Positions 8,062 to 40,682 of a DNA stretch of 41,325 nt are shown here, piece by piece. The position numbers and the translations under genes were made by a program. The notes under the pieces were generated by a model. The model searched no databases. It was not told where the DNA came from and worked only from the letters and a program-made list of their open reading frames with translations. This DNA is from Verrucomicrobiota bacterium (GTDB taxonomy: Bacteria > Verrucomicrobiota > Lentisphaeria > Victivallales > UBA1829). Each line of letters starts with the position of its first letter. The stretch's first letter is position 1. The DNA lies in assembly GCA_022703965.1 (NCBI GenBank), contig JAKJHH010000001.1, positions 1 to 41,325 on the forward strand, given 5' to 3'.

Positions 8062-8065
8062 AATT

Positions 8066-12949: not shown

Positions 12950-13723
12950 TTATGGACGGTTTTCCGTTGCACGGGCCGAGCCGTCGAATGACCATGGATT
13001 ATCAGGGAAATTTATCGCCTGAAGAATCCCGTATTGAGCATACCATTGAGACTGAATCTGCAAAACGGTGCTTCCGGAACCGCGAATTCCGGAAACATGG
13101 CCGTCTCCATGAAGACAGTTGGCAAGCCTTTCCTTGTCGTGAGTCGGTTTTGCGCAGGTTCCAGTCATTTTATTACGAGTGCGCGACACGGCTCCGGACT
13201 CAATTGCCGCAATAAATCTGGCTGGTCCTTTTACAGCTCCGGCCTTGAGCCATGAACAGTTGTCAGAGGCTTCACGTCCTCCCATTTCGTTGGTATTGAG
13301 TCCGTGTGCCGCATATTGCCAGGCATAAAGATTATCCGTTATTTTATTCTGGTCAAACATCTTGCGATAGTTTATGTTCGGATCTGCCGGATCAATATTC
13401 GAGGTCGCTGATTTACAGAAAAAAACCTTGGGAATCACATAGTTCATTTCACAGAAGAATTGAGTCCAGTAATACGGCTCACCTGAGCCTTTAAGGTAGA
13501 GATGAGCCTTTGGATAATAATCATTATAGTCTCCATGGTAGACACTGATTGCGCTGCCAACCTGACGCTGATTATTTACACATGTAATTGTAAAGCCTTT
13601 TTCCCTCACTGTATTGAGCGCCGGCAGCAGCATGCTGGCCAGAACGGAGATAATTGCTATCACCACCAAAAGCTCAATCAAGGTGAAATTTGTCCGTCCG
13701 AACTTTTCTGTCGTAAATTTCAT
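12950..13723 (-). CDS. prepilin-type N-terminal cleavage/methylation domain protein (DUF1559-like pseudopilin)
   Basis: The N-terminus is [36 protein letters not shown], with Phe+1 and Glu+5. The C-terminus contains HGDGH. A strong SD (GGAAGGTG) lies 5 nt upstream of the ATG. Confidence 0.8.
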
Positions 13724-19050: not shown

Positions 19051-19054
19051 ACAT

Positions 19055-21579: not shown

Positions 21580-21590
21580 GGAGTCTGACA

Positions 21591-23663: not shown

Positions 23664-23679
23664 TCAAACGGAGATTTAT

Positions 23680-24525
23680 ATGCTTTGCACGGCCAAAGAA
23701 TTGTTGAAAGACGCGTCAACCCGTAAATATGGAGTAGGAATGTTCAATGTCGTAAGTCTTGATTGCGTAAGAGCAGTCTGTGAAACGGCAGAAGCATTGA
23801 AATCTCCTGTAATGATCGCCCTTGCCGAAATCCATCTGCCTTATGCTCCTATAGAGCTTATGGCGCCCTTGATGCTCGCCGCTGCACGGAACGCAAAAGT
23901 TCCTGTTGCGGTTCATCTCGACCACGGATGCAGTTTCGAGGTACTTGTCAAAGCTGTAAACGCCGGATTCACATCAGTCATGTTCGACGGCTCAACTCTT
24001 CCCTATGCCGAAAATCTCGGCAGAACAAAAGAAATAGTAAAAATAGCCTCGGTTTCAGGGACTTCAGTAGAAGCCGAAATCGGACATGTCGGCGGTGGAG
24101 AAGGCGGCACTGAAGACAGCTCTCCTGAGCTCTACACCGAACCGGAACAGGCCTTACGTTTCGCTCAGGAAAGCGGCATTGACTCCCTTGCGGTCGCCAT
24201 CGGCACTGTTCACGGCGAATTCAAAAAGACTCCTCGTCTGGATTTTGAGCGTCTTTCCGCAATTCACAAGATAGTATCTCAGCCCCTTGTCCTGCACGGC
24301 GGTTCGGGTCTCTCCGACGATGATTTCAGGGAATGCATCAGACGCGGCATCAGCAAAGTCAACATCTTCACCGATATGTCCTACGCAGGCAGTGAAGCCG
24401 CGCGCAAGGCTCTCGCCTCAGGCAAAAAGATGCATTGTTTCGAGTTCACCGAAGCCTCCAGAAAAACAATGGATGAAGTAGTCGAGACAAAAATCCGTCT
24501 CTTCGGCAGCAACGGCATGGCTTGA
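23680..24525 (+). CDS. class II (metal-dependent) ketose-phosphate aldolase, FBA/tagatose-bisphosphate aldolase family
   Basis: 281-aa ORF. Motifs are VAVHLDHG, EAEIGHVGG and LVLHGGSG. The size matches the GatY/KbaY/IolJ type. Confidence 0.85.
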   Translation: MLCTAKELLKDASTRKYGVGMFNVVSLDCVRAVCETAEALKSPVMIALAEIHLPYAPIELMAPLMLAAARNAKVPVAVHLDHGCSFEVLVKAVNAGFTSVMFDGSTLPYAENLGRTKEIVKIASVSGTSVEAEIGHVGGGEGGTEDSSPELYTEPEQALRFAQESGIDSLAVAIGTVHGEFKKTPRLDFERLSAIHKIVSQPLVLHGGSGLSDDDFRECIRRGISKVNIFTDMSYAGSEAARKALASGKKMHCFEFTEASRKTMDEVVETKIRLFGSNGMA

Positions 24526-24600
24526 TCATAATTTTCAGTCCTTTTCTTTATCTTTTCAAATAAAGCCGTATTTTACATCAAAAGCTTCAGGACAGGAACC

Positions 24601-25548
24601 ATGATATCAGAACTCTTATTTAAAAACATAGCAGTTTCAAGAGTCTGTTTCGGACAGGCTTATATCGGACAGTACTACTCGGAACAAGAGGCGTGGCGTC
24701 TGCTTGATATATATCTGGAACATGGCGGAAATTTTATCGATACCGCCAGAATCTATTCCGACTGGGTTCCTGGAGAAAAGGGAAGAAGCGAAAGAATTCT
24801 GGGAGATTATTTCCTGCATTCCTGCAAGCGTGACAAGTTCGTCATAAGCACCAAGGGCGGATGTCAGCCTGACGGCATGTTTTCTCCTTCCGATCTTATG
24901 AAAGATCTCGAAAACAGCCTTGCCGCCATGCGAACTGATCACGTGGAATTCTATCTTTTTCATCGAGATATCAAAAAATATCCTCCAGAAGCCTTTATGG
25001 AGCTTCTGGAACTCGCTAAAACTCAGGGAAAAATACTTGAGTACGGAGTTTCGAACTGGCCTTTGTCCCGCTGTTCCGAGGCACTGAACGCGGCTGCCTC
25101 GCATCACTGGACCGGCATTAAAGTCAATCAGATCCTCCTGAGTCCCGGCGTGCAATATGCCAGAGCTCAGTCCGACCCTTCAATCATCACATGGGACGCT
25201 GATTTTGCGGATTTTCACCGGAAAAGCAAAATTCCTGTCATGGCGTTTTCCTCTCAGGCTAAAGGATTTTTCAGCAGATATCTGAATCCGCTCACACGCG
25301 AAACCTCAAGGGATAACGAATTTTATTCCGCAGAAAATGTGGAAGCCGCCTGTAAAATGGAGCATCTTTCAAAGAGATACGGGATTTCGCTCACCAACAT
25401 TATCATGCAGTATTTGACTCGCTATCCTGAAATTCAAGTTTTTCCTGTCTTCAGCGTGAAAAGCGAAGCACAACTAATTGATGTCATGAAATCATTTGAG
25501 ATTCCGATCCCTGATCATGAGCTTGCATCGCTTGTGCCTTATCTGTAA
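24601..25548 (+). CDS. aldo/keto reductase
   Basis: 315-aa ORF. AKR catalytic residues are visible in FIDTARIY (Asp, Tyr), STKGG (Lys) and LFHRD (His). Confidence 0.85.
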   Translation: MISELLFKNIAVSRVCFGQAYIGQYYSEQEAWRLLDIYLEHGGNFIDTARIYSDWVPGEKGRSERILGDYFLHSCKRDKFVISTKGGCQPDGMFSPSDLMKDLENSLAAMRTDHVEFYLFHRDIKKYPPEAFMELLELAKTQGKILEYGVSNWPLSRCSEALNAAASHHWTGIKVNQILLSPGVQYARAQSDPSIITWDADFADFHRKSKIPVMAFSSQAKGFFSRYLNPLTRETSRDNEFYSAENVEAACKMEHLSKRYGISLTNIIMQYLTRYPEIQVFPVFSVKSEAQLIDVMKSFEIPIPDHELASLVPYL

Positions 25549-26483
25549 CGACGCAGAAGAGTCTCTGCATTTCTGGAAAAGAAATTCTCAGTTTCTTCAG
25601 AAGATATTTCCAGATTTCTGAAGGCGTTGCGAATAGCGATAAGCTCTCCGTATATTCGAAAAATCTTGAGCTCACGTCCATGAAATTTAAAGCTCACATT
25701 CCGCCTGCATCCTCCGATTACAAGGGCGTTGTCACTGCCGAAGATAATCCTTTTCCGGTTCTCATGAACAAAAAGACTCTTCAAGGTTTCAGTATCATAT
25801 ATAAGCGCACTGTCATAAAAAATATTAGGAATGTCGGCAAGCATTTTTATTGTTCTATCAATCTGCCCTGATTCAAATGAGGCGGCGCAATGAGCCATAA
25901 TCCATTTAATCTCAGGATATTTTGAACTGTAATATTCGAGTTCTGCAAGCAAATTCTCCGCTACTCCCGGCAGGTGGATAATTACCGGCATTTTCCAAGC
26001 GTTGGCTACTTCCATCTGTTCTTCAGGAAAATACTCCGTGATTGAAGGCATTTTTTTGTCGACCATGCTGAAATACGGTTTCAATGCGACACAGTTGGCA
26101 TGCCTGCTTATAAATGATTCGATGTCGGCTGCTGAAATCTCAGGACTCAAAAGCATTGCGCCGCGTGAATCCTTGTCCTGTGCAAGTTCCTCCGCCGCCC
26201 ATTCACTTACTCCCTTGTGATCCGTATTCCTGACCGGACTCGGAAAGGATAAAAAATGGATTTTTCGCCCCGGATAGAACAGCGAGCTGATATCCTGAAG
26301 TTCCTTCAATCCTGTATTATAATTTTCCCAGTCATTTGGAGGATTCGCGTCTTTTGAGAACGCTTTGTTCCAGAGATGTGTATGAGCATCAAAAATCTTT
26401 CGCGGCACAAAATTTTCAAGCTCTTCATCCCATATTTCACGATCAAGAGCAGCATAATCCAAAAGCCTTCTTATGTCGTTCAT
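25539..26483 (-). CDS. amidohydrolase_2-type metal-dependent hydrolase (the family includes sugar-lactone lactonases)
   Basis: 314-aa ORF. It has FDAHTHLW near the N-terminus and a TIM-barrel hydrolase pattern. Its 3' end overlaps the convergent AKR gene by 10 bp. Confidence 0.7.
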   Translation of the reverse strand: MNDIRRLLDYAALDREIWDEELENFVPRKIFDAHTHLWNKAFSKDANPPNDWENYNTGLKELQDISSLFYPGRKIHFLSFPSPVRNTDHKGVSEWAAEELAQDKDSRGAMLLSPEISAADIESFISRHANCVALKPYFSMVDKKMPSITEYFPEEQMEVANAWKMPVIIHLPGVAENLLAELEYYSSKYPEIKWIMAHCAASFESGQIDRTIKMLADIPNIFYDSALIYDTETLKSLFVHENRKRIIFGSDNALVIGGCRRNVSFKFHGRELKIFRIYGELIAIRNAFRNLEISSEETENFFSRNAETLLRRYR

Positions 26484-26495
26484 TCTTAACCCTTT

Positions 26496-27521
26496 TTAAT
26501 ATGCTATGCAAACCGGAGAGCGCAATGATATTTTGATCCTTTCAGCATCGTCATGCAATCCTGTGATTTCTAGACTGTCATCTCCGGCGCAGGCAGTGAT
26601 GATTCTTCCGTCCGAAAGGAATTCACAATCCCAAGGGGTTTTTCCAACAGCTATAAAACCGTCCGGCAAAAGACTCCCGTCTGGATTAATTCTAAAAGCT
26701 GCCAGCGACTCATGACCACGGTTTGAGACCAGAAGAGTTTTGGCGTCTTTAGAAAGGCGCAGTGCAGCGTTTTCAGAATAGCCTGAGTAAGACTCCGGCA
26801 GACTTGAAAACGTCTGAAGATGCTTCAGTTGTCCTTCGGAATACTCGAACGCCGCAAGCTGATTGCTGACCTGATAATTCACATACAAACGCCGTCCGTC
26901 AGGATGATAGACTAGATGCCTCGGTCCGCTTCCGGCTGGAACTCTGAAAACCTTGGCTTCCAGCTCTTCGCAGCCGGACTCCTTATTCAAATAATAGAAA
27001 TAAATACTGTCGTTGCCAAGATCGGACACAGTAAGAAATTTTCCATCAGGACTGATTCTCATGCAATGGGGATGCGCCGAACTTTGGAAACGTTCGTTTA
27101 TGCTGCTTCCATGATGAGATATGAGCCTGCATCGTTCACGGAGAGAACCATCATCATTCAGCTTGAATGCTACAAAATTTCCGCCCAGATAGTTGGCGGC
27201 GTAAATAAAGCCGTCATGCTCCATTATGTGACAAGTCCATTGGCCTCCGCTCGGCAGCGAATTGAGATATCTCAAAGTTCCGTCAGACTCTATCGCAAAC
27301 GATGCAAGTTCACCGTCCCCCGTAAAACGCGTGGATTCCCTGACTGCCGCATAAAGATTCTTCCCGGAAGCCGATACGATGATATACCTAAGCTGCGTTT
27401 GCAGAAATGAGCCTATCATCTTCACGTCTCTTCCGTTTAGCTCAAAAGCATAAATGCCGTCTTCCTCACTTTGTCCGAATGCGGCTGCGTAAAAGATTTC
27501 TCTGTCATTTTCTGTCTTCAT
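26496..27521 (-). CDS. 7-bladed beta-propeller lactonase (6-phosphogluconolactonase Pgl-type family)
   Basis: 341-aa ORF. It has GSGPRHLVYHPDGRRLYV and repeated propeller-blade patterns. Confidence 0.75.
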   Translation of the reverse strand: MKTENDREIFYAAAFGQSEEDGIYAFELNGRDVKMIGSFLQTQLRYIIVSASGKNLYAAVRESTRFTGDGELASFAIESDGTLRYLNSLPSGGQWTCHIMEHDGFIYAANYLGGNFVAFKLNDDGSLRERCRLISHHGSSINERFQSSAHPHCMRISPDGKFLTVSDLGNDSIYFYYLNKESGCEELEAKVFRVPAGSGPRHLVYHPDGRRLYVNYQVSNQLAAFEYSEGQLKHLQTFSSLPESYSGYSENAALRLSKDAKTLLVSNRGHESLAAFRINPDGSLLPDGFIAVGKTPWDCEFLSDGRIITACAGDDSLEITGLHDDAERIKISLRSPVCIAY

Positions 27522-27529
27522 TTTTTACC

Positions 27530-28843
27530 TCAAAAAGTTGAATCAGCCATATTTTCGCCCATCGTTTCTCTGACATTGAATGAGCAATATGCAACGATTC
27601 CGGCCAGAACCATCAATGCTCCGAAAACCGCCAGATAAGATTTTGAGCTGTATACCATAAGCCCATTCTGAAGTTCCGGAGGAAAAATATTCATCAGCAG
27701 TCCGACTGCATTGCCAAGTAATGCCACGACCATATAACAAGTAAAATTCAGGATGCTGACAGAAACTCCCGTGAGCTCCTGAATATTGGTCTCCCTCAGC
27801 AACGGCACCACGATAGAGGATGTACTTGCCGTAAAAGAAAGCATGCAGAGCAGTCCGGCAATCCATGTTGATCTCATGTCAAGAATCAGCATGAGACTGA
27901 TAAGTGAAAACATCAGAATACAGCTTATTCCGGCGATTCTGACGAAAATCCTCCGTCTGTTTCCGCTCATCCGGCTGAGCAAGGCAAAGCCGAGTCCGGA
28001 AAATGCCGAGATAAAGCCCATAAGCGAGAGTATCCATGCCGCGTTTTCCGAGCTCATCGAACAGAAGTCCTCAAGAAACTTCTTGCCTATGACCGTCTGA
28101 ATCACATAATAGAGCCCGAAATTTATGCCGCAGAAAAGGAAAAGATCCCTGTTGTGACGCTTTTTCAATATACTTAGAAAAGGACTGAAACTGAACGGCA
28201 CATACTTGAATTCAGGCATTCTCAAAGTGGATTTAGCCAGAAGGAAAAGCAGATAAAAACTGATGGACAGGACAGCCACCATTATCATAGCATTGCGCCA
28301 TCCATATATGTTGATGTAATAGACAAACGGAGCGTTAGCCATGATTCCCCCCGCATAGCCGATCAGAATCATGACGGAAAGCATTATCATGAAGTTTTTA
28401 TTGAATGAACGCATTATTTCCTTTACAAGACTCAAATAAAGCGAACTCGCCCCCAGTCCGGTCAAAGCCCTGCTTAAATATAGCATGAAAAGACTGTCGG
28501 AAACTGGAAAAATCAATGATCCTATGCAAAAAATCAATGCTCCGAACGCGATTACTCTGGCTCCTCCGTAACGGTCGACGAGCAAGCCGATTCCGAGCTG
28601 GCAGAGCGCATAAATATACATGAACGACGAGCCGAACGCGGTTATGTACGGAGCCGACACATCAAGCTCCTGCTGAAGCAGATTAAAGACAGATCCGGGA
28701 ATGGCGACTCTCTGAATATTCGCGAAAAAATAGAGCGCTGTCCCGCAGATCAGCAAGCTCCACAAACGGTACTTGCGGGGAATCTTTTGAAGATATTCTC
28801 TCATCGTTTTTATCTTTTCATAAAAATGAAAAATGCGGAGCAT
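27530..28843 (-). CDS. MFS transporter
   Basis: 437-aa ORF that is hydrophobic throughout, with about 12 predicted helices by eye. It contains LGIGLLVDRYGGARV. The alternative start M14 is at 28804. Confidence 0.85.
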   Translation of the reverse strand: MLRIFHFYEKIKTMREYLQKIPRKYRLWSLLICGTALYFFANIQRVAIPGSVFNLLQQELDVSAPYITAFGSSFMYIYALCQLGIGLLVDRYGGARVIAFGALIFCIGSLIFPVSDSLFMLYLSRALTGLGASSLYLSLVKEIMRSFNKNFMIMLSVMILIGYAGGIMANAPFVYYINIYGWRNAMIMVAVLSISFYLLFLLAKSTLRMPEFKYVPFSFSPFLSILKKRHNRDLFLFCGINFGLYYVIQTVIGKKFLEDFCSMSSENAAWILSLMGFISAFSGLGFALLSRMSGNRRRIFVRIAGISCILMFSLISLMLILDMRSTWIAGLLCMLSFTASTSSIVVPLLRETNIQELTGVSVSILNFTCYMVVALLGNAVGLLMNIFPPELQNGLMVYSSKSYLAVFGALMVLAGIVAYCSFNVRETMGENMADSTF

Positions 28844-28922
28844 TTTTGTAGGGTACAGGCGTCACGCCTGTCCGCCGAGCGGCGGCAGAGCGATCTCCGT
28901 TCCATTCCCTGCTTTATTAGCC

Positions 28923-29879
28923 TTAGCGTATCTTCAGGACAATTTTGCCTGTATTTTCATTACGCTCAAGAATCGCGTGTGCGGACTCCGCTTCGGAAAT
29001 CGGCAGAATCTTGTAAATGAGCGGCCTGATTTTTCCTTTTTCGATTTCAGGCCAGAGCTTGCTCTCCATTTCACGCAGAATGAAGCCCTTCATTTCATTG
29101 CTTCTGCTTCTGAGTGTGCTACCGATAAGACGAAGTCCCTTTTTAAGTATCGGACGCAAGGCTATATTGGCATGTTCTCCGCCAAGGGTGGCGATGAGAA
29201 TCCAGCGTCCGCCCTGAGCCATTTTCTCAATATGCTTTCCTAGATCTTCTCCTCCGACACAGTCAAGTGTTATGTCTACCGGATTTTCATCCAGAATCTT
29301 GCCGATATCGTCTTTCTTGCGGTTAACAACAATATCTGCGCCGATCTTGCGGACAGCATCGGCCTTCTCGTCGGAACCAACTGTAGTTATGAGCTTGGCT
29401 CCGAAAGCTTTCGCTGTCTGTATGGCCGCTATGCCCAGACCGCTTGCCCCGGCATGAATCAGCACGGTGTCTCCTGCTTTTATGCCCGCTTCGATGCAGA
29501 GATTCAGATATGATGTCGCAAAGACTTCCGGCAAGGCGGCTGCCTCCTCCATTGAAAGTCCTTTCGGAATCGACATCAACATGTCCTGAGGCACGGCAAC
29601 TTTTTGAGCATAGCCACCTCCTCCGAGCAGAGCACAGACTTTGTCGCCTGCTTTCCAGCGTGAATTCTGCGGAGCTTTAAGGACGATTCCGGCAGCTTCA
29701 AGCCCCATCCATTCCGGCCAGCCGAGAGGCGGCGGATATTTTCCAGCTCTCTGAAGCAGATCCGCACGGTTAAGCGCGGTCGCGTGAACTTCTACAAGCA
29801 CTTCTCCTTCTTTGAGCTGAGGATCAGGCACTTCACTCCATATAAGTTTTTTATCTGCATCAACCAGCATTGCGTACAT
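28923..29879 (-). CDS. NAD(P)H:quinone oxidoreductase-type medium-chain dehydrogenase/reductase
   Basis: 318-aa ORF. It has ALNRADLLQRAGKYPPP and IHAGASGLG (a Rossmann motif). Confidence 0.85.
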   Translation of the reverse strand: MYAMLVDADKKLIWSEVPDPQLKEGEVLVEVHATALNRADLLQRAGKYPPPLGWPEWMGLEAAGIVLKAPQNSRWKAGDKVCALLGGGGYAQKVAVPQDMLMSIPKGLSMEEAAALPEVFATSYLNLCIEAGIKAGDTVLIHAGASGLGIAAIQTAKAFGAKLITTVGSDEKADAVRKIGADIVVNRKKDDIGKILDENPVDITLDCVGGEDLGKHIEKMAQGGRWILIATLGGEHANIALRPILKKGLRLIGSTLRSRSNEMKGFILREMESKLWPEIEKGKIRPLIYKILPISEAESAHAILERNENTGKIVLKIR

Positions 29880-29898
29880 TCTCTGATTCTCCTTGATT

Positions 29899-31038
29899 TT
29901 ATTGAATTTCCAATGGATGCCGACGTTCTTTCAAAGGCAACGATACAGGATGTCCCGAAAGATGAGCGGCATATGTTCCAACTATCATTTCAAGTGCTAT
30001 TCTTGCGTCGCGAGAGCCGGATTGAACATTTGAGCCGTCTCTGATTGCACAAAGCAAATCCCAAGCCGCAAAACGGTTGTTTGTTCCGAAGTAAAAGTGA
30101 TCGTAACTTTTCATTCCCAACTCCTCGTAATTGAGCGGCAAGGCATCGGGAATAATCCGGCTTTCCTGCAAGGAAAGCTCTTCAAAAGACGCTTCGTCTT
30201 CAGGAGGCATCGCTGTACCTTTCTTGAATCTCAAAGAGCGTTCACCGCTGTATCTGACGGCTAGGCTTCCTTTTGTTCCGGCCACAACTAAGCCCATATG
30301 AGACGCGTCATTGCGCTCCATCAGGCCGCGACGACTTTCAAAAATCCCGTTAACGCCGTTAGGAAAACGGTAGAACGCCATAATTTCATCCCCTGCGACA
30401 GGCCCGACAGGTTCTTCGGTTTTGAGTCTGTCTTTTGCCGTAATCGGCTTTCCGTTCACGCGGATATCTGCCCATACCTGCTCAGGCGCTCCAAAGAGAT
30501 AGGCTCCAAGATCAAGAATATGCGTCCCAAGCACAATCATATCCTCGCCGCCGCCTCGCGGATCTTCCTTGCCTCGACCATAGAAGGTCAGGACTCTGCC
30601 GATTGCGCCATCCTCGATCATCTTTTTCATTGTCCGGAACACGAGAGCATAGCGTCCGAGATGAGCGATGAGGATTTTAATTTTCTTCGCCTCCGCAAGT
30701 TCAATAAGTTCGTCAGCCTGACGCAAATCGGCAACAAAAGGTTTTTCGCAGAGCACATGGCAGTTCATCGAAATAGCAAGCTTAATCTGCTCATAATGAT
30801 CCTCGGGCAGACGTGAACATAGAATGACGATTTCCGGACGCTCTTTTTCCATCATTTCTTTGTAGTTGCGATAGCGGCGAGAGGCTTCCGTAAGGCGCAT
30901 CCGCTCCTCAATTCCATCATCATTCGAGTCGCAGAGAGCGGCAGTTTCCACCCCCGGGAGCCCTTTGAACGCAAACTGCGTAAAATGACCTCCAAGGCGC
31001 CCTTCTCCTGTTTCATGACATATGCAGATTTTTTTCAT
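29899..31038 (-). CDS. Gfo/Idh/MocA-family oxidoreductase
   Basis: 379-aa ORF. It has an N-terminal Rossmann fold and the HVLCEKPF motif. Confidence 0.85.
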   Translation of the reverse strand: MKKICICHETGEGRLGGHFTQFAFKGLPGVETAALCDSNDDGIEERMRLTEASRRYRNYKEMMEKERPEIVILCSRLPEDHYEQIKLAISMNCHVLCEKPFVADLRQADELIELAEAKKIKILIAHLGRYALVFRTMKKMIEDGAIGRVLTFYGRGKEDPRGGGEDMIVLGTHILDLGAYLFGAPEQVWADIRVNGKPITAKDRLKTEEPVGPVAGDEIMAFYRFPNGVNGIFESRRGLMERNDASHMGLVVAGTKGSLAVRYSGERSLRFKKGTAMPPEDEASFEELSLQESRIIPDALPLNYEELGMKSYDHFYFGTNNRFAAWDLLCAIRDGSNVQSGSRDARIALEMIVGTYAAHLSGHPVSLPLKERRHPLEIQ

Positions 31039-31052
31039 TTATAAACTCCGAT

Positions 31053-31817
31053 TCAAATTTTTCCTGCTTTGGGGCCGAGCGTGCGTCCTCCATCGATCAG
31101 ATGACACTGTCCGGTAACAAACGCCGCCTCATCAGAGGCGAGATAGCAGATAAGATTCGCAATATCATCCGCTGAACTCGGACGTCCGAACACCGTCGAA
31201 TCCCCGAGTTTCTCCATCCCCGGACGAGTCGCTACGGCAGCCGGAGCAACACAGTTGACAGTAATCCCGTTATTTCCGTACATCATCGCAAGGGATTTTG
31301 TAATTGAAATTATAGCTCCTTTCGAGGCTGAATAAACAGGAATTCCAGACGCTCCCGCAGTGCCGCAGATTGAGCTGAGATTGACGATGCGTCCATAGTT
31401 TTTCTCCTTCATTTCAGGAAGAACTTTCTGGATGCACTGAATCGCGCTTCTGAGGTTGACCGCAAACTCCCAGTCTATATCCTTGACAGTCTGCTCCTCG
31501 AAAGAAACAAAACGTCCGAGCGCCATGCAGGAGCCTCCAGCGTTGTTGACCAGAATATCAATATGTCCGCCAAGCTTTTCCTTGGCTTCCTTGAGCATCC
31601 TTTCCGTGTCTGTCGCGTCGCTGAGATCCGCCGCAACGGCTATTGCCTGAAATCCGGCATTCTGAAGCTCATTTGCTAAAGCTGCCGCTCCTGCGGCGTT
31701 TATATCGTTTATAGCGACAAACGCGCCTTCACTCGCAAGCCTTCGGACGACGGCGGCTCCGATTCCTTTGGCAGCTCCAGTGACAAGTGCAGTTCTGTTT
31801 ATAAAACGCTTATTCAT
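31053..31817 (-). CDS. short-chain dehydrogenase/reductase (SDR paralogue A)
   Basis: I moved the start to M45 of the track ORF (ATG 31817-31815), which overlaps the upstream stop as ATGA. Motifs are TGAAKGIG, NNAGGS, YSASK and DGGRTLG. Confidence 0.85.
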   Translation of the reverse strand: MNKRFINRTALVTGAAKGIGAAVVRRLASEGAFVAINDINAAGAAALANELQNAGFQAIAVAADLSDATDTERMLKEAKEKLGGHIDILVNNAGGSCMALGRFVSFEEQTVKDIDWEFAVNLRSAIQCIQKVLPEMKEKNYGRIVNLSSICGTAGASGIPVYSASKGAIISITKSLAMMYGNNGITVNCVAPAAVATRPGMEKLGDSTVFGRPSSADDIANLICYLASDEAAFVTGQCHLIDGGRTLGPKAGKI

Positions 31818-32590
31818 TTTGCCTGACTCCTTGCTGTCGGCCCGAGACTGCGGCCTCCATCCACGATATAATTGCTGCCTGTAATAAACGATGCTTCCTC
31901 CGAGCTCAGAAAAGCGATCATTGAAGCCAGCTCGGAAGGGCGTCCGCAACGTCCGACATATGTTCCTTCGCTCGGAGGCATGAGTTCCGGTTCCTCTCCT
32001 GCCGCGTAACGTGCGATCAGGCCCGGAGAAACGGAATTGACGTTGATGTTATGACCCCCGAGTTCAATCGCCAGCGCTTTTGTGAAGCCTATGATTCCAG
32101 CTTTCGCCGCCGAATAGTCCGAGCGTTGCTCTATACCCACCTCAGCCGCGATTGATGAAATATTGATGATTTTACCGTAATGTTGTTTTATCATCGTCGG
32201 CAGGACAGCCTGGGTACAGCGCATTGTTCCGCCAAGATTTATATCCAGTACCCATTGCCAGATTTCCTCTCTGGCATCCTTGAATTCCGTGAGCTCATTA
32301 CGCAAAGCGGCACTGCCTCCGGCATTGTTGACAAGGATATCAATTCTTCCATATTTTTCGAGAACAGCCGAAACCATTTTCCTTACTGAATCCGTGCTTG
32401 TGACATCGCATTCCAACGCAAAAGCGTTTGCGTTGAATTTCAGTATCTTATCTAGCGTTTTTCGCGCTCCGTCCATACTCAAATCAGTGGCGACGACAAT
32501 TGCGCCTTCTTCCGCAAGGCGCAGACAGATTGCTCCGCCTATTGCGCCTCCTGCTCCAGTTACAATCGCTATTTTACCTTCGAGATTCAT
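31814..32590 (-). CDS. short-chain dehydrogenase/reductase (SDR paralogue B)
   Basis: 258-aa ORF. Motifs are TGAGGAIG, NNAGGS, YSAAK and DGGRSLG. Confidence 0.9.
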   Translation of the reverse strand: MNLEGKIAIVTGAGGAIGGAICLRLAEEGAIVVATDLSMDGARKTLDKILKFNANAFALECDVTSTDSVRKMVSAVLEKYGRIDILVNNAGGSAALRNELTEFKDAREEIWQWVLDINLGGTMRCTQAVLPTMIKQHYGKIINISSIAAEVGIEQRSDYSAAKAGIIGFTKALAIELGGHNINVNSVSPGLIARYAAGEEPELMPPSEGTYVGRCGRPSELASMIAFLSSEEASFITGSNYIVDGGRSLGPTARSQAK

Positions 32591-32607
32591 AATCTGTTTT
32601 TCCTGTT

Positions 32608-33363
32608 TCAGTAATCGCCTTTGAGTCCCAGACTGCGTCCGCCGTCCACAGCAAGATCCTGTCCTGTGATAAAATCCGATTCCGGCAGGGCGAGGAAGAG
32701 TACCGCTCTTGCTATATCATCCTGAGTGCAGATTCTGTTTACACATGAATACCTTTGAGCAAAAGCTTTTTCATCCTCAATTGCCTCACGGGAAACGAGT
32801 CCTGGGGATACGCAGTTGACATTGATGTTAAATTCCCCCAGCTCAAGAGCAAGTGATTTTGTTGCCGCTATAAGCGCCCCTTTAGCCGCTCCATATTCCA
32901 CACAGGCTTTTTTGCCTCCTCTTGCGACAATTGAACTCACGTTTATTATCGAACCGCGTCCTGATTCAATGATGAAAGGCGAGCTTGCTCTGATGCAGTG
33001 CAAGGCTCCGTAAAGATTGATGTCTATCATATCATGAATGACCTCAAGGGACTGCTTGTGAAATTCCGCCATCTTTGAACGTGCACTGCCTCCAGCACAA
33101 TTGACGAGTATATTTACGTTGCCAAGCTTTCCTTTCACCTCGGCGACGGCCTTTTCAACTTCGCTGTAAATCCTGATATCAAGCACAAAGGGAAGAGCTT
33201 CTCCGCCCTTTTGCTTTATCTCCTCCGCGACTTTTTCCGCCGATTCCATGCTGATGTCGAAGACGGCTATTTTTGCTCCTTCTCCGGAGAGTTTCAGACA
33301 TATTGCGCGTCCGATGGCTCCTCCGCCACCTGTGACAATCGCCACTCTGTTTTCCAGTTGCAT
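32608..33363 (-). CDS. short-chain dehydrogenase/reductase (SDR paralogue C)
   Basis: I moved the start to M34 (ATG 33363-33361), 16 nt after the upstream stop. Motifs are TGGGGAIG, NCAGGS, YGAAK and DGGRSLG. Confidence 0.85.
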   Translation of the reverse strand: MQLENRVAIVTGGGGAIGRAICLKLSGEGAKIAVFDISMESAEKVAEEIKQKGGEALPFVLDIRIYSEVEKAVAEVKGKLGNVNILVNCAGGSARSKMAEFHKQSLEVIHDMIDINLYGALHCIRASSPFIIESGRGSIINVSSIVARGGKKACVEYGAAKGALIAATKSLALELGEFNINVNCVSPGLVSREAIEDEKAFAQRYSCVNRICTQDDIARAVLFLALPESDFITGQDLAVDGGRSLGLKGDY

Positions 33364-33379
33364 ATCAAAAAATCCTTTC

Positions 33380-34396
33380 TTAAAGATTGTATCCCGAGGC
33401 AGCAAGCAAGGCTTCCTGAACCAGCAGTTCATGCTGATAGTTAAAGGGATTTTCCTTTTCACCGCGAACTATTTCCGCAAACTCTCTGAGTTGAGCGGCG
33501 TAACGGTCTCCCATCGTTCCGCAGTCTACCTTATGAGTTCCAGCCTTGTACGCCCCTGCATCCTGCTTCAGCGTGAGCCTTGCGTAAAGTGGGTCGCTAT
33601 AGTAGCGGTCGGAGGGCGTTTCAATCGGACATATTTCCACTGTTCCCAGTGTACCGCAGACTATCAGACGTCTGTGCTTCATACCGTCGATTTCTTCAAC
33701 TGAAACTCTTATAGTCGCTGTTGCGTGTTCATATTCCATGACAGCGAGTCCATTGTCGATGAGCGCATCATTGCGGGTCTTTTTGAGGAATGGACTTATT
33801 TTGTCCGGCCTTCCCATCATACTTATCACGATGTCGATGAGGTAGCCCGCGAAAATGTACATCGCGCCGCCTTTGAATTTACTCAGCCATGCTCTGTATT
33901 CGGCGTTGTCACCGTCATAACGGCTCATCACCGCATGAATCTCAAATACATTGCCGAGCCATCCCGATTTCACTGCATTGATCGCAAAACGCAGCGCCGG
34001 ATTATAGCGGTACGCATAGGCAAGCTGAAGCGCGAGTTTCTTTTTTTCGCAGAGTTCCAGCAGTTTTTTGAATTCGGAAAGAGATTCTCCTCCAGGCTTG
34101 TCGAGGTGTATATGCAGATTATGCTCGGCGCATTTCAGTGCTGTCGGGATAAGGTCAAAGCCGTCTTTTTCAACCGCCACGGCATCGAGTCCGGGACTAT
34201 TGAGGATTTCCTCCTCACTCATCCATTTCAGTCCTTCGTAGCACTTGAGTCCGCTTCTTTTTTTCATCCATTCAGGATCGCTTTCGGAGACCCCGACAAT
34301 CTCGAAGATATTTTCAAGCTTGCGCAACGATTCCATATTGCCCTGAGCGTGGTTGTGTCCTATTCCGATCTGAGCTATTTTTATGCGTTTTGTCAT
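33380..34396 (-). CDS. Gfo/Idh/MocA-family oxidoreductase
   Basis: I moved the start to M24 (ATG 34396-34394), 4 nt after the upstream stop. Motifs are IAQIGIGHNH and HIHLDKPG. Confidence 0.85.
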   Translation of the reverse strand: MTKRIKIAQIGIGHNHAQGNMESLRKLENIFEIVGVSESDPEWMKKRSGLKCYEGLKWMSEEEILNSPGLDAVAVEKDGFDLIPTALKCAEHNLHIHLDKPGGESLSEFKKLLELCEKKKLALQLAYAYRYNPALRFAINAVKSGWLGNVFEIHAVMSRYDGDNAEYRAWLSKFKGGAMYIFAGYLIDIVISMMGRPDKISPFLKKTRNDALIDNGLAVMEYEHATATIRVSVEEIDGMKHRRLIVCGTLGTVEICPIETPSDRYYSDPLYARLTLKQDAGAYKAGTHKVDCGTMGDRYAAQLREFAEIVRGEKENPFNYQHELLVQEALLAASGYNL

Positions 34397-34400
34397 TTTG

Positions 34401-35402
34401 TTAATCCTTCTTCCATTTAAAAACGAGTCCAGGTGCATCGTTTTTCCCCTCAAGAAGCCTTGCATAAACTGCTTCGGCGTTTTCGGGATTCAGATATTCT
34501 GAAATCATCGAACGAACATTAAGACGCTTATGTGAAATCATTGAGAGCAGACAAGTTACATCATCGCGCATTGTCCAGTGTCCATGCGAAGACTCCTGTT
34601 TCGGACGTACAAAGTTATGCGCTCCGATAATTGAAACTCCGGGCTTGTGGACATCAGTATAGAAGTTGATCCCGTCCGTTATGCTTCTTGCGCAGCCAAG
34701 GAGAATGATTCTTCCTCTCCACGCTACATGTTTGAGAGCCTGATTCAGAGCTTCGCTCCTGCCTGTAACTTCTATAATCGCATCGACACCTTTTCCGCGT
34801 GTTATCTCTTTCAGTTTCTCTTCAAAATTTTCATCCTTCGGCGAAAGCGCATAGTCGGCTCCGAGCTTTTTCGCAAGCTCAAGACGGGACGCTGAGATAT
34901 CACTTGCGATAACTGGAAGTCCCCCCTGAAAACGGGCAAGCTGTGTTCCGAAGAGTCCAAGCAAGCCTTGTCCCATCACCATTACCGACTCGCCCAGCTC
35001 AATATTTGCCTTGCGAATCCCCTGAAGCGTCATTGCCGCGATGATCGTGAATGCCGCCTCCTCAGCAGGAATATCAGGATCGTGAATTTTCGTAAGCTGT
35101 GATTCATGCACGATTCCGTGACTTGAGTGATTCAGATGATATGCAACGACTCTGTCGCCTTCCTTGAAATCCTTTACGCCGGAGCCGATTGCGAGAACGC
35201 GTCCTGCCGCGCTGTATCCTGGATATTGCGGAAATTTCGCTATTGTGTTTTCCTTGCCCTGAAACCAGGCAAGCTCCGTTCCCTGGCTTATGACGCTGTA
35301 TTCCACTTCGATCAGGACTTGTCCTTCCTTAGGATCACTTATTTCAAATTCTTCCAGCTCTGCCTTGCAGGCTGATTTCCAAACAATGCGTTTTGCTTTC
35401 AT
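34401..35402 (-). CDS. medium-chain (zinc-type) alcohol/polyol dehydrogenase family protein
   Basis: 333-aa ORF. It has a GroES-like N-domain (GQVLIEVEYSVISQGTE) and the Rossmann motif VMGQGLLG. Confidence 0.8.
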   Translation of the reverse strand: MKAKRIVWKSACKAELEEFEISDPKEGQVLIEVEYSVISQGTELAWFQGKENTIAKFPQYPGYSAAGRVLAIGSGVKDFKEGDRVVAYHLNHSSHGIVHESQLTKIHDPDIPAEEAAFTIIAAMTLQGIRKANIELGESVMVMGQGLLGLFGTQLARFQGGLPVIASDISASRLELAKKLGADYALSPKDENFEEKLKEITRGKGVDAIIEVTGRSEALNQALKHVAWRGRIILLGCARSITDGINFYTDVHKPGVSIIGAHNFVRPKQESSHGHWTMRDDVTCLLSMISHKRLNVRSMISEYLNPENAEAVYARLLEGKNDAPGLVFKWKKD

Positions 35403-35437: not shown

Positions 35438-35466
35438 ATTATATGACTCTTTTCTCTTGCGGACAA
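35438..35466 (-). promoter_or_regulatory. candidate promoter of the ten-gene oxidoreductase operon
   Basis: On the minus strand, TTGTCC (35466-35461) is followed by a 17-nt spacer and TATAAT (35443-35438). This is about 35 nt upstream of the start at 35402. Confidence 0.45.
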
Positions 35467-35584
35467 TACCCTTCTCTGCTCATCTTATGTAAAAAAATCT
35501 GTAAATAAATAATATTATCAATAATTATCTAATATTATTGAAAATGAATCAACATCTAGACTTTTTCCTGCGTCAAAAATGAGC

Positions 35585-36565
35585 TCAATTACGCTCAGAT
35601 ACACTGTCGCGCACAATCAGCTTATAAGGGAGCACTGTAGTTTCAGGGAAGTCTCTGCCATCCAGACGTGCATCAATGATCTCCGCTGTGCTACTGACGA
35701 GTGCGCTGTAGTCCTGCGATATGCTTGTCTGAGCAGGAACACAGTAGCGCGTAACCATTGCGCGTTCAGAACTTATGATGGATATATCTTCGGGGATGCG
35801 TTTGCCGTAAAGAGAAAGAGAATATGCCGTAATGATTCCTGCGTTGCCGCCCGGACAGAATATCGCGTCGACGCCTTTCCGCAAAAGTTTTCCGGCTTCT
35901 TCGAGGTTGTTTTCAGGGCCCGCGAAGCGAACCAGCGATTTATCACAGGGCAGCTTGTGTCTGGCCAGAGATTCCAGAATACATTTTTCTCTTACTGATG
36001 CGTTGCCAAGTCCTATTGTGCCTATGAGCGCTCCGATTTTCTGATGTCCCTTTTCGACAAGATGGCTGATTGCCAGTTCCATCCCCTGGGCCTCATCGGA
36101 ATGAACAGAAAATACGCCTTTGTAACTTTTTTCAAGTATGCGGTCGAGCACAATGAGCGGCGCATCGAAGCGGGAATCCCAGTCTTCGGCGATTTTATCC
36201 GTCATTCCCGCAAAAATCACGGCGCAGAATTGAATCCCATCCAGACGTTCAAGATTGTCCTGAGGCAGAATTTCGGTGCGGTAATCGCGTGCTGAAAGTT
36301 CTCTGGACAGCTCCGAACTCAGCATTTCAGTATAACTCTGAACGGGATATTCCAGTTTGGAGGGCGTGACTATAACAACATTGCGCCGTTTGTTGGACAG
36401 CCTCGGATGAAAGCCATATTTCCGTGCTATTTTAAGCACGCGCTCCCTGATTTCCGGCCTGATGTTAGGATGATTGCTGAACACTCGTGAGATTGTCGCC
36501 GTCGACACCCCGGCTTCCTTCGCGATATCCTGTATTCTCATAGTCCCGTTCCTGTTTTGATTCAT
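35585..36565 (-). CDS. LacI/GalR-family transcriptional regulator (intact)
   Basis: 326-aa ORF. The HTH reads IQDIAKEAGVSTATISRVFSN and is followed by a full PBP-type effector domain. Confidence 0.9.
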   Translation of the reverse strand: MNQNRNGTMRIQDIAKEAGVSTATISRVFSNHPNIRPEIRERVLKIARKYGFHPRLSNKRRNVVIVTPSKLEYPVQSYTEMLSSELSRELSARDYRTEILPQDNLERLDGIQFCAVIFAGMTDKIAEDWDSRFDAPLIVLDRILEKSYKGVFSVHSDEAQGMELAISHLVEKGHQKIGALIGTIGLGNASVREKCILESLARHKLPCDKSLVRFAGPENNLEEAGKLLRKGVDAIFCPGGNAGIITAYSLSLYGKRIPEDISIISSERAMVTRYCVPAQTSISQDYSALVSSTAEIIDARLDGRDFPETTVLPYKLIVRDSVSERN

Positions 36566-36616: not shown

Positions 36617-37321
36617 TTAATTTTTTATCAGGCTGAAGATTGTATCCGCTATAAGTTTCTGCCGTTCGGTATCGGGGTGATTTAGACCGTTTATCAGAAA
36701 TTCGTTTGTATCAAAACCCTGTTTTTCCAAGTTTTCCCATTCGTTATAGACATCTGCTACGGGAACGTTCAGGTCATCGGCTGTTTTGCGCAGTCTTTGA
36801 ACGTAGGCTTTCAGGATTCCATTGTTCTGACAATTCAATATGGTCTGAACGTGACGGCGATGTTCGGGCGCAATCTTTGCAGTTTCGCGCGAGGCCATGA
36901 AGTTGGGCGTGAGAATTATGATCTCGGCATTCGTTTTTGAGCGTGTCTCATTGATGATTTTACGTATGTTCTGCTCATATTCATCAAGTTTTTCGAGACC
37001 GCCGCAAGAATCATTGAGACAGAAGCCAAGAATAAGCAGATCAGGGAAATATCTGATTACATCGCGCTCCAGTCGGAATAAACTTGAGCCTGCGGAAGAT
37101 CCTCCGACTCCGGCGTTTATAACACTGAATACAGTCTGGGGATATTCATGCTCAAGTTTCTGTTTTAGAATATTGTGATAGACTCCGGAATAATCAGCAA
37201 CGTTGTATTCCATGCAGCCCTGAGTCACGCTGTCGCCGAAAGCTACGATTACTATCGAGCCTTCGGCGGGATTGCTTGCATTGGCTTTTATTCTCGACAG
37301 AAATCTTTCCAGCATAAACAT
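36617..37321 (-). CDS. SGNH/GDSL hydrolase (putative carbohydrate esterase)
   Basis: 234-aa ORF. SGNH blocks are VAFGDSVTQG (I), NAGVGGSS (II) and GFCLNDS (III). Its start ATG shares 1 nt with the upstream stop (TAATG at 37319-37323). Confidence 0.8.
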   Translation of the reverse strand: MFMLERFLSRIKANASNPAEGSIVIVAFGDSVTQGCMEYNVADYSGVYHNILKQKLEHEYPQTVFSVINAGVGGSSAGSSLFRLERDVIRYFPDLLILGFCLNDSCGGLEKLDEYEQNIRKIINETRSKTNAEIIILTPNFMASRETAKIAPEHRRHVQTILNCQNNGILKAYVQRLRKTADDLNVPVADVYNEWENLEKQGFDTNEFLINGLNHPDTERQKLIADTIFSLIKN

Positions 37322-38292
37322 TATCTCCTGAAAATAAGCTTTCTGAGCAAGGCGCTTGTTTCGACAGGAGAAGCATTCTCTACGGCTTCTTTGATTTCCT
37401 TGCGGTTTGCATCTACAAGATCACTAGCGGCCTGCATCCATTTGATGGATTCGTTTATGGCTTTTGCCGCGTCCTCGCGGTAAGGATATTGATCCATTGA
37501 AATCCAGCCGTCATAATTGCATTCGCCAAGCCAGTAGAAAAGCTCAAGATAATCAATTGTGTGGATTGATCCTGCGATCATGTCGTCGTCCCAACTCTTG
37601 TAATTGTCGTTAAAATGCATGTGATAGAGACGGTTTCCGCAGCTTTTGGCGAGAGCGACGGCTTCAGCCGCGTTTTCACCCGCGAGGAAGGCGTGTCCGG
37701 TGTCAATTGTCACGCCGATGTTTTCCGCGCCTGTAACCTGACAGAGCAGAAGACATTCAGCCATGCGCGGCAGATAGGAATGAGCTCTCGGCTCCTTCGC
37801 CTTGTATTCCAGAGATATTTTCAGAGTCGGAAATTCGGATGCGAGCTTTGCCATTCCGTCCGCAAAATACTTCCATGAGTCGAGAAAAGTTCCCTGAAAA
37901 GGATAGTCATAGCCATCCTGAGCCGGCCAGAAGTTGAGGAGTCTGCAATCCATTTCCATGCAGAGTTCGCATGAAGAGCGCAGATGATCCAGCGATTTTT
38001 TACGCACGGCGGCATCCCGGCTGCTGAGGCTCCCGAAACGCCAGAAGCTTTCTGAAAAGAGGTCAGGAATTATTGATGCGCACTCTAGTCCGCTGTCGTT
38101 GAAGAGCTTCCTCATTTCCTTTGCGCTTTCGCGGCTGACATCCCATGTCTCGACGAGTTCCATGCCTTTTACGCCCTCGATAGCCGCAGCTTTTTTGAAC
38201 ATGTCCATAACTGCTATGCTGTCTTTGTATGAGCCGCAGAAGCGATCCTTTGTATTGCCGAGGTTGCCGAGAATTACAGATATTTTATTCAC
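37321..38292 (-). CDS. xylose isomerase-like TIM-barrel protein (sugar phosphate isomerase/epimerase family)
   Basis: 323-aa ORF with a GTG start. It has TIDTGHAF and YHMHFNDN motifs typical of this fold. Confidence 0.8.
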   Translation of the reverse strand: MNKISVILGNLGNTKDRFCGSYKDSIAVMDMFKKAAAIEGVKGMELVETWDVSRESAKEMRKLFNDSGLECASIIPDLFSESFWRFGSLSSRDAAVRKKSLDHLRSSCELCMEMDCRLLNFWPAQDGYDYPFQGTFLDSWKYFADGMAKLASEFPTLKISLEYKAKEPRAHSYLPRMAECLLLCQVTGAENIGVTIDTGHAFLAGENAAEAVALAKSCGNRLYHMHFNDNYKSWDDDMIAGSIHTIDYLELFYWLGECNYDGWISMDQYPYREDAAKAINESIKWMQAASDLVDANRKEIKEAVENASPVETSALLRKLIFRR

Positions 38293-38306
38293 GTGTGTTT
38301 ATCCTT

Positions 38307-40595: not shown

Positions 40596-40682
40596 GCTTG
40601 ATTCCTTGATTTTTCTGATGTATGATGTCATGTTACGTATATATTATATTCTTTATTTATAGCTTAAAGAATGGTATAAAGC

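Follow-up and report, generated by a model that had tools for sequence, protein, structure and literature searches.

A LacI-associated redox gene cassette conserved in PVC bacteria and its possible role in converting carbohydrate-like compounds

We analyzed the first 41,325 nucleotides of contig JAKJHH010000001.1 from a Verrucomicrobiota bacterium (assembly GCA_022703965.1), a stretch that we call the window. The window comes from an anaerobic-digester metagenome and its nearest protein relatives are found in Victivallales/Lentisphaeria. On its minus strand, ten closely spaced genes (G1 to G10) run from position 35402 down to 25539, next to a gene encoding a LacI-family repressor (35585..36565, minus strand). 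By gene content and order, seven of the ten genes and the repressor make up a cassette conserved in several phyla of the Planctomycetes-Verrucomicrobia-Chlamydiae (PVC) group. We found no characterized counterpart for any of its enzymes, so the cassette probably encodes an undescribed route for a sugar-like compound. We put about even weight on, and against, the reading that it is a LacI-repressed cytoplasmic pathway, fed by a major facilitator superfamily (MFS) transporter, that would carry a ring-hydroxylated, carbohydrate-like substrate through keto intermediates to a common product.

An open reading frame (ORF) listing with translations gave ten intact minus-strand genes, as the initial annotation of this DNA had described, and Pfam assignments agree gene for gene with the families and order that it listed: a medium-chain dehydrogenase/reductase (MDR), a Gfo/Idh/MocA oxidoreductase, three short-chain dehydrogenases/reductases (SDRs), a second Gfo/Idh/MocA oxidoreductase, a quinone oxidoreductase (QOR)-type MDR, an MFS_1 transporter, a PF10282 protein and an Amidohydro_2 protein. 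With starts chosen by homology and ribosome-binding context, the successive gaps from G1 to G10 are 4, 16, 17, -4, 14, 19, 79, 8 and 12 bp, where the negative value is an ATGA overlap of G4 and G5; lacI and G1 are 182 bp apart. The spacing first reported (4-19 bp, the overlap, and 79 bp before the MFS gene) is reproduced with one amendment: G8 probably starts at its 14th codon (28804) because its homologues are 424-426 amino acids (aa) long, and the gap before it would then be about 118 bp. The cluster encodes seven oxidoreductases (G1-G7), the transporter (G8) and two hydrolases (G9 and G10). The initial annotation counted eight oxidoreductases, and the eighth is an aldo-keto reductase encoded on the opposite strand, outside the cluster (24601-25548); the 3' ends of its gene (plus strand) and of G10 (minus strand) overlap by 10 bp (25539-25548), which leaves no intergenic space for terminators. 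As originally stated, the ten genes include no dehydratase, aldolase or kinase. Low-depth contigs in three wastewater and sludge metatranscriptomes match parts of the operon and span only the G3/G4 and G9/G10 junctions, with DNA carry-over possible, and they weakly support co-transcription of the ten genes, a point on which the initial annotation had made its reading depend. A search for better RNA runs gave none.

A conserved cassette with a dedicated regulator

We scanned one genome per species for the family of G6, the long Gfo/Idh/MocA oxidoreductase that serves as the signature of the cassette, and compared the window proteins with the resulting 80 loci by tblastn. A core set of genes recurs in a common order in about 26 of these loci, and three independent look-ups agree. 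The initial annotation had proposed a search for neighborhood conservation across PVC genomes, and this is its outcome. The core comprises the LacI repressor, a zinc-less MDR, a short Gfo/Idh/MocA oxidoreductase, SDRs (one to three in most cassette loci), the long Gfo/Idh/MocA oxidoreductase, a PIG3-type QOR, an MFS transporter, and often an Amidohydro_2 protein. Carriers include gut and rumen Victivallales/Lentisphaeria, Kiritimatiellota strains B1221 and B12222, Opitutia metagenome-assembled genomes (MAGs), a termite-gut Opitutia isolate (Geminisphaera colitermitum TAV2) and a Planctomycetota MAG (locus L027); the habitats of all host genomes are anoxic (gut, rumen, termite gut and digesters).

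The most conserved member is G7, with orthologues of 54-75% identity in 26 loci, encoded almost always directly after G6 or after G6 and an amidohydrolase. Orthologues of G2 (45-75% identity) are present in 24 loci, and those of G1 (40-63%) in about 25, usually directly before G2. The repressor has orthologues of 50-62% identity in 19 loci, where they flank the cassette and are usually divergent from it, and the MFS transporter G8 is found at the cassette end in 13 loci (46-70%). Among the SDRs, G3 has its own orthologue group (60-68%; L027, L030, L034 and L038), G4 has orthologues in L021 and L006 (67-74%), and G5 has one in L027 (63%). The Planctomycetota MAG and the window share an identical order from G2 through G8, and in Victivallis and another Lentisphaeria genome the neighborhood of G6 is a similar cluster beside a divergent LacI gene.

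Two further families recur in related loci. An extended SDR of ~340 aa, which has no counterpart in the window, is encoded just before G6 in 17 loci, and Victivallis and related Lentisphaeria, as well as Geminisphaera, encode an Amidohydro_2 protein of ~257 aa, with its gene placed after G7 or between G6 and G7. Clustering of the ORFs from 25 cassette-bearing loci revealed no other recurrent family, and no dehydratase, kinase, aldolase or glycosidase. Once identity to G6 drops below about 40% (in Planctomycetota and Devosia), its homologues lie outside any such cassette; we considered the 32-37% identical Planctomycetota homologues as a source of context, and their neighborhoods are not conserved and are uninformative. 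The distant homologues in Devosia and Chelativorans adjoin a sugar-binding protein, two more Gfo enzymes and a protein with a PF06439 3-keto-disaccharide hydrolase domain, a hint towards keto-glycoside chemistry. An Opitutia variant (L038) has a FAH hydrolase, an Ldh_2 dehydrogenase and two hydrolases inserted between its QOR and MFS genes, and its FAH hydrolase is most similar to 2,4-didehydro-3-deoxy-L-rhamnonate hydrolase of the L-rhamnose pathway (210 bits against a cut-off of 500), which is a hint towards deoxy-sugar acids. The Kiritimatiellota loci L034 (7309-9951) and L030 carry genes for PEP-CTERM and Laminin_G_3 proteins between lacI and G6, within a cassette whose enzymes are otherwise cytoplasmic. 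Both also encode a 242-aa protein that matches no family between the QOR gene and G2; it stands at the amidohydrolase position and is not an amidohydrolase.

The repressor has a PF00356 DNA-binding domain and a PF13377 sugar-binding domain, and is the dedicated regulator of the cassette. A 19-bp palindrome, GTAAATA-N5-TATTTAC, is common to the LacI-operon intergenic regions of five loci (L005, L020, L030, L034 and L041). Allowing up to two mismatches, we found eight matches in 85 loci, of which five fall within the ~200-bp LacI-proximal intergenic regions and one at the 5' end of the operon in L035. The only window match at this threshold, GTAAATAAATAATATTATC at 35501..35519 (two mismatches), sits between lacI and G1, upstream of a promoter-like TTGTCC-17-TATAAT (35438..35466, minus strand) that matches 10 of 12 consensus positions and is recognized by consensus only. 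With a LacI gene adjacent and a conserved palindrome in the regulatory region, the ten genes have the hallmarks of a LacI-regulated operon, and we take the palindrome as its predicted operator. Neighboring operons are preceded by no such palindrome, so the LacI regulon in the window appears limited to the ten-gene unit. We rejected a second candidate upstream of a GH78 gene (40538-40556) that has three mismatches, lies inside a coding region and is within chance expectation. The end of lacI carries a weak terminator-like hairpin (35580-35597). Reading by eye, we also noted an AT-rich inverted repeat, AATAATATTA-N12-TAATATTATT, at 35509-35540 in the lacI-G1 intergenic region, which overlaps the candidate operator. 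Because the core set and its order recur across PVC phyla together with a dedicated LacI repressor and a common candidate operator, we regard the cassette as one functional unit.

Enzymes and transporter encoded by the cluster

The two Gfo/Idh/MocA oxidoreductases are distant from one another, sharing 22% identity over a partial alignment, and both keep the catalytic lysine of the (D/E)KP motif. G6 (29899..31038, minus strand; 379 aa; EKP; assigned by Pfam) has 800 homologues, mostly in Victivallales/Lentisphaeria, and its family shows many invariant Arg and Lys residues and the motifs KEDxRGGGE and NNRxAAWDL. Among solved structures, its closest match is levoglucosan dehydrogenase (6a3f), with a score of just 55 bits, and its nearest characterized relatives are levoglucosan dehydrogenase, inositol dehydrogenase and glycoside 3-dehydrogenases, all of which oxidize ring hydroxyls. 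G2 (33380..34396, minus strand; 338 aa; DKP; PF01408/PF22725/PF02894) reached no NCBIfam equivalog. The MDR G1 (34401..35402, minus strand; PF00107/PF08240) is threonine-dehydrogenase/BchC-like and lacks catalytic zinc ligands: the Cys, His and Glu zinc positions read S/Q, Y and S. An Asp terminates its strand beta-2, and the enzyme is probably NAD-dependent; its best NCBIfam matches are far under the cut-offs. We also considered whether G1 and G2 represent a split form of the bi-domain oxidoreductases, in which MDR and Gfo domains are fused, and discarded this idea: an exhaustive search of representatives with G2 gave two long matches, P0199 and P0232, both without an MDR domain, and G1 fails to align to P0199.

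G3 (32608..33363), G4 (31814..32590) and G5 (31053..31817), all on the minus strand and all PF00106/PF13561, are classical SDRs with 37-44% pairwise identity (44% for G3 and G4) and intact N(N/C)AG and YxxxK motifs, which in G3 read NCAG and YGAAK. An Asp at the end of beta-2, seen in G3 as elsewhere in the trio, suggests that the three enzymes use NAD(H). G7 (28923..29879, minus strand) is a zinc-less QOR-type MDR that belongs to the PIG3 family, scoring 369.3 bits over its full length against the TIGR02824 cut-off of 296.8. It is the sole cluster protein to reach a curated family cut-off, which is that of a subfamily model. It aligns to the human PIG3 structures 2oby/2j8z with 227 bits, its nearest solved relatives are enone and enoyl reductases, and we predict that it is an NADPH-dependent enone/ene reductase. 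Judged by cofactor motifs, the cluster would combine six NAD-type enzymes with one NADPH-type enzyme. The transporter G8 (27530..28843, minus strand; PF07690) is closest at the subfamily level to Bcr/CflA efflux proteins (45 bits), with weak matches to aromatic-acid and anion symporters, all far under cut-off. None of the ten proteins reaches a function-specific (equivalog) NCBIfam model and their relatives in the PDB are only remote.

The two hydrolases differ in how firmly they can be assigned and in their distribution. G9 (26496..27521, minus strand) is a cytoplasmic seven-bladed propeller lactonase (PF10282, 226 bits) whose PDB relatives are uncharacterized Bacteroides proteins and the gluconolactonase PpgL. 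In tblastn searches of the related loci, no cassette had a counterpart of G9, and from this distribution it appears to be a recent lineage-specific addition; a lactone route is therefore no property of the conserved cassette, and the initial picture of a dehydrogenase and a lactonase lacking the later enzymes does not describe it. G10 (25539..26483, minus strand) is a divergent metal-dependent Amidohydro_2 hydrolase (PF04909, 35 bits, just over the cut-off) that keeps the HxH, H, H and D metal ligands. It matched no NCBIfam model and has only seven homologues in a protein database of 5.8 billion clusters. A sequence search of the PDB returned nothing for G10, the extended SDR or the 257-aa amidohydrolase. 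The AlphaFold model of G10 (predicted local distance difference test score 83.8) is an amidohydrolase_2 barrel, and its best template-modelling scores are to the COG3618 sugar lactonases 4do7 and 4d8l and to LigI, with non-oxidative decarboxylases at comparable E-values. Both hydrolases had been called lactonase-type; the assignment is solid for G9, and from its modelled fold, to which lactonases and decarboxylases are about equally close, G10 is a possible lactonase.

Unlike G9, G10-like proteins recur in related cassettes. Of the three G10-homologue contexts that we read, two belong to the cassette. L086 has the order AraC, Gfo, SDR, G10 homologue, SDR, SDR, Gfo, QOR and MFS, and L088 has Gfo, QOR, MFS and G10 homologue, with no lactonase between. 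A profile-profile comparison of the G10 family with the in-cluster 257-aa amidohydrolases gave 94.6% probability (E = 7e-8) over 229 columns with the metal-ligand motifs aligned. On the strength of these contexts and this link, an Amidohydro_2 protein is a recurrent but non-universal member of the pathway. A 349-aa Amidohydro_2 protein in L038 belongs to a different subfamily and was set aside. In L086, the AraC-associated version of the cassette, the MFS gene is directly followed by a gene (9302-10873) for a 523-aa ADP-ribosylglycohydrolase-family protein.

A proposed route, its precedents and its alternatives

In the route that we propose, the MFS permease would import a ring-hydroxylated, carbohydrate-like compound, and the NAD-type Gfo/Idh/MocA enzymes G6 and G2, together with the zinc-less MDR G1, would oxidize its secondary hydroxyls to ketones. 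A G10-type Amidohydro_2 protein could then catalyze a metal-dependent hydrolytic or eliminative step, either lactone or ring opening or the loss of a substituent. The PIG3-type G7 would reduce the resulting alpha,beta-unsaturated carbonyl with NADPH, and the NAD-type SDRs G3-G5 would reduce the remaining keto groups with NADH. The pathway would yield a common sugar or sugar acid, for which the downstream enzymes are encoded outside the cassette. The classical dehydrogenase-lactonase-dehydratase-aldolase route would not be used, and the overall sequence would be roughly redox-balanced, as expected for fermentative anaerobes. Of all this, the genes, their families, their conservation and adjacency and the tie to the regulator are shown; the substrate class, the enone and the order of the reactions are our inference. 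Among the three routes that the initial annotation entertained, redox conversion via keto intermediates, whether by epimerization or by 3-keto chemistry, fits best, since the closest characterized relatives of G6 are C3- and ring-hydroxyl dehydrogenases and a PF06439 protein stands beside its distant alphaproteobacterial homologues.

Several observations weigh against this proposal. No enzyme reaches a function-specific family cut-off and the substrate is without an assignment. The enone intermediate is read purely from the family of the QOR. The core lacks the TIM-barrel lyase or epimerase that is present in every characterized route of the 3-keto-glycoside or YcjQRS type. G8 is closer to drug and anion carriers than to sugar porters. 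Only about one in three cassettes includes an amidohydrolase, and some do without G1 or the MFS gene, which means that our scheme may be more elaborate than the chemistry strictly needed. Co-transcription, finally, rests on gene spacing and a few low-depth metatranscriptome contigs. The most specific version of the proposal, an undescribed anaerobic carbohydrate pathway that combines Gfo oxidation, elimination, PIG3-type C=C reduction and C=O re-reduction, we hold as tentative and rather unlikely.

The closest precedent in logic is E. coli ycjQRS. Like the cassette, this system places an MDR dehydrogenase and a Gfo/Idh/MocA enzyme under a LacI-family repressor (YcjW) and remodels a sugar by oxidation and re-reduction, in three genes that include no dehydratase, aldolase or kinase. 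RefSeq names the three enzymes D-guloside 3-dehydrogenase, 4-epimerase and D-glucoside 3-dehydrogenase, which together convert D-guloside to D-glucoside via 3-keto glycosides. The proteins are not orthologous to ours: identities are 21-26% for G1 and YcjQ (25%), G6 and YcjS (26%), and the LacI repressor and YcjW. YcjQ is a zinc enzyme whereas G1 has no zinc ligands, the TIM-barrel epimerase YcjR has no counterpart in the core, and ycj has no QOR, SDRs or amidohydrolase and uses an ATP-binding cassette (ABC) transporter where the cassette has an MFS protein.

Other routes through 3-keto-glycosides include levoglucosan degradation by LgdA/B1/B2/C, the Bacteroides BT2156-2160 system and C-glycoside cleavage by DgpA/B/C. 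These resemble the cassette in that they direct a Gfo/Idh/MocA dehydrogenase at a ring hydroxyl and often pair it with a further Gfo reductase, but a xylose-isomerase-like lyase or hydratase defines them and they have no ene reductase. Against the corresponding equivalog models, G6 scores 61 of the 650 bits required for LevoglcsnDh, 41 of 650 for BT_2159_fam and 28 of 750 for BT_2158_fam, and G2 scores lower still. Neither a xylose-isomerase-like lyase/hydratase nor PF06439 is encoded in the ten genes or the core; the window does encode a TIM barrel 2 kb upstream, on the far side of lacI, but it does not travel with the cassette. In Thermotoga maritima, inositol is degraded by IolG, IolM, IolN and IolO through two NAD-dependent ring oxidations (by a Gfo and an MDR enzyme), hydrolytic ring opening and epimerization, without a dehydratase. 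The cassette as we read it resembles this whole series of steps, but the scores are far under cut-off, with G6 at 69 of 355 bits for IolG, G1 at 94 of 450 for IolM, and the IolO-like TIM barrel, which lies outside the cassette and is not conserved with it, at 46 of 300.

In the L-idonate (GntII) system of IdnD, IdnO and IdnR, and in the Bacteroides L-galactose route, sugar acids are interconverted and the product is passed to pathways encoded elsewhere. Their likeness to the cassette lies in LacI-type control and in the pairing of an MDR with an SDR, or of a dehydrogenase with an Amidohydro_2 lactonase and an MDR; unlike the cassette, they lack both a QOR and a pair of Gfo/Idh/MocA enzymes. 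G1 scores 48 bits against the IdnD cut-off of 469, and the SDRs ~149 against the gluconate 5-dehydrogenase cut-off of 279. Taken with ycjQRS, these systems indicate that a missing dehydratase, aldolase and kinase is normal when a pathway only converts an unusual compound to a common one. The non-phosphorylative LRA1-6 pathways for L-rhamnose and L-fucose likewise combine SDR dehydrogenases with an Amidohydro_2 lactonase, and some loci carry hints of them: the cassette has a GH78 gene beside it in the window and in L039, and the FAH hydrolase of L038 is LRA6-like. Gfo/Idh/MocA enzymes and a QOR are, however, no part of those pathways. We found no enolase- or IlvD-type dehydratase, as a non-phosphorylative pathway of the L-rhamnose, L-fucose or L-arabinose type would require, in the ten genes or in about 26 related cassettes, and no aldolase or FAH-type final-cleavage hydrolase in the window cluster, the FAH protein being confined to that one related locus.

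Literature searches returned no description of the cluster, and the initial judgement that it maps to no described pathway stands. That annotation had allowed that the cluster might prove to be conserved and already characterized; it is conserved, and we did not find a characterization. It is distinct from the systems above in that two Gfo/Idh/MocA oxidoreductases occur together with SDRs, a PIG3-type reductase that is strictly conserved and, often, an amidohydrolase, while a TIM-barrel epimerase or lyase is absent. The cluster, conserved yet uncharacterized in the libraries and literature that we searched, is best filed as kin of LacI-controlled redox-interconversion operons such as YcjQRS and IdnDO.

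We weighed three other explanations. The cluster could encode an oxidative lactone route, modelled on the conversions of L-galactose to D-tagaturonate and of L-idonate to D-gluconate, in which an aldose is oxidized at C1, G9 and/or G10 hydrolyze the lactone, and the aldonate is epimerized or reduced before entering uronate or gluconate pathways elsewhere. The confident PF10282 assignment of G9, the similarity of the G10 model to COG3618 sugar lactonases 4do7 and 4d8l and the recurrence of Amidohydro_2 proteins in the cassette all speak for such a route, as do the phosphotriesterase-like lactonase, rhamnonate-type FAH hydrolase and Ldh_2 dehydrogenase added in L038, the weak similarity of the MFS protein to anion-type carriers, the convergent aldo-keto reductase gene that abuts G10, and the many invariant Arg and Lys residues of the G6 family. 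We nevertheless think it unlikely: no related cassette has G9 and about two thirds have no hydrolase at all, the PIG3-type ene reductase is left without a role, a net oxidation is awkward for fermentative anaerobes, and the fold search that links G10 to lactonases cannot separate these from decarboxylases.

Quite unlikely, in our estimate, is a reductive or isomerizing metabolism of cyclitols or hydroaromatic acids (inositol isomers or compounds of the quinate/shikimate type), possibly serving as an electron sink, in which the Gfo enzymes would be cyclitol dehydrogenases, the QOR would reduce ring C=C bonds, and the amidohydrolase would either serve as a dehydratase/hydratase or hydrolyze the ring. 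Gfo/Idh/MocA is the family of inositol dehydrogenase, and G6 and G1 do give matches to IolG (69 bits) and IolM (94 bits), although all scores against inositol-pathway equivalogs are far under cut-off; a QOR with several NAD-type ketoreductases suits ring enone chemistry, as the plant-fed anoxic habitats and the weak MFS matches to aromatic-acid and anion symporters would suit such substrates. Older biochemistry describes a reductive metabolism of quinate in lactobacilli and the rumen, for which no genes are known to have been assigned. Yet no enzyme of the AroD/AroE, IolE or IolD type is present, a literature search for gene-level work on such chemistry found nothing for comparison, and the case is entirely circumstantial. 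We judge it highly improbable that the cluster serves detoxification and efflux instead of catabolism, with QOR, MDR and SDRs neutralizing reactive quinones, aldehydes or enones and the MFS protein acting as exporter. Enzymes that detoxify carbonyls and quinones typically come from the PIG3/QOR, MDR and SDR families and the best MFS subfamily match is to Bcr/CflA efflux at 45 bits, but the MFS matches are all far under cut-off, six of the seven enzymes look NAD-type and not NADPH-type, and a LacI repressor with a sugar-binding domain plus two Gfo/Idh/MocA enzymes, in an order kept across phyla, points to carbohydrate-like substrates.

Genomic surroundings and significance of the cassette

Upstream of lacI, Pfam and NCBIfam identify a GH78 alpha-L-rhamnosidase, a xylose-isomerase-like TIM barrel and a GDSL esterase (36617..40631, minus strand), paired with a divergent AraC-type gene (about 40668 to the window end). 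The group does not travel with the cassette; only in L039 does a GH78-like gene immediately follow the cassette. We considered a link to rhamnose on this basis. Only the window and L039 have a GH78-like gene beside the cassette, and L001 has one beside a G6 homologue that stands alone; this adjacency is too sparse to assign rhamnose or rhamnosides as the substrate and serves as a lead only.

On the other side, a convergent sugar operon (17647-25548, plus strand) beside a divergent AraC gene (16705-17580) encodes a FucI-C-like isomerase that is a distant relative of sulfoquinovose isomerase, an FGGY kinase, a DUF4432 protein, a GH36-like enzyme closest to beta-L-arabinopyranosidase, a class II ketose-bisphosphate aldolase and the aldo-keto reductase. 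We considered this isomerase-kinase-aldolase operon (17647-24525) as the source of the missing downstream steps and rejected it: it is convergent, goes with a separate AraC gene, has no operator site and accompanies none of the related cassettes. It is a second unassigned sugar route.

Farther away, the plus strand encodes a 736-aa glycyl radical enzyme and a radical-SAM activase (5851-8962), with an AraC gene at 4923-5747 (minus strand). The enzyme is of the PFL2/glycerol-dehydratase class, and its best equivalogs, hydroxyproline dehydratase and sulfopropanediol dehydratase, are all far under cut-off. Next to it (8982-13723, minus strand), a 1337-aa protein without a confident Pfam domain adjoins a 257-aa protein with a prepilin-type N-terminal methylation motif, and a like pairing, of a protein of at least 1100 aa with a 257-aa protein, occurs near the cassette in the Victivallis loci L003 and L004. 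An ISL3-family transposase fragment with zinc ribbon and helix-turn-helix (HTH) domains runs off the window start (1-390, minus strand), and a 219-aa LacI-like ORF with weak HTH and sugar-binding-domain matches (3920-4579, plus strand) may be a truncated regulator.

PVC bacteria such as Victivallis, Kiritimatiellota and Opitutia specialize in breaking down complex glycans in guts, rumens, digesters and sediments, and to our knowledge their monosaccharide metabolism is largely without assigned genes. That at least three phyla have retained these seven or eight genes together, along with a repressor of their own, implies that a real, widespread substrate remains to be found. We regard the cassette as a solid, testable lead of moderate interest, though all of its enzyme families are ordinary. 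Culturable carriers exist in Geminisphaera colitermitum TAV2 and Kiritimatiellota strains B1221 and B12222, and the candidate operator offers a direct handle for ligand screening. Solving the cassette would annotate hundreds of metagenomic genes now called 'Gfo/Idh/MocA family oxidoreductase' and 'quinone oxidoreductase', and may yield new keto-sugar or enone chemistry of use in biocatalysis. If the route through an enone is correct, it could offer PVC bacteria a cofactor-balanced means of deoxygenating or opening a rare sugar, glycoside or cyclitol, or of stripping it of a substituent, with no need for dehydratases, TIM-barrel lyases or aldolases, and would give a bacterial PIG3-family enzyme its first physiological role in sugar metabolism.

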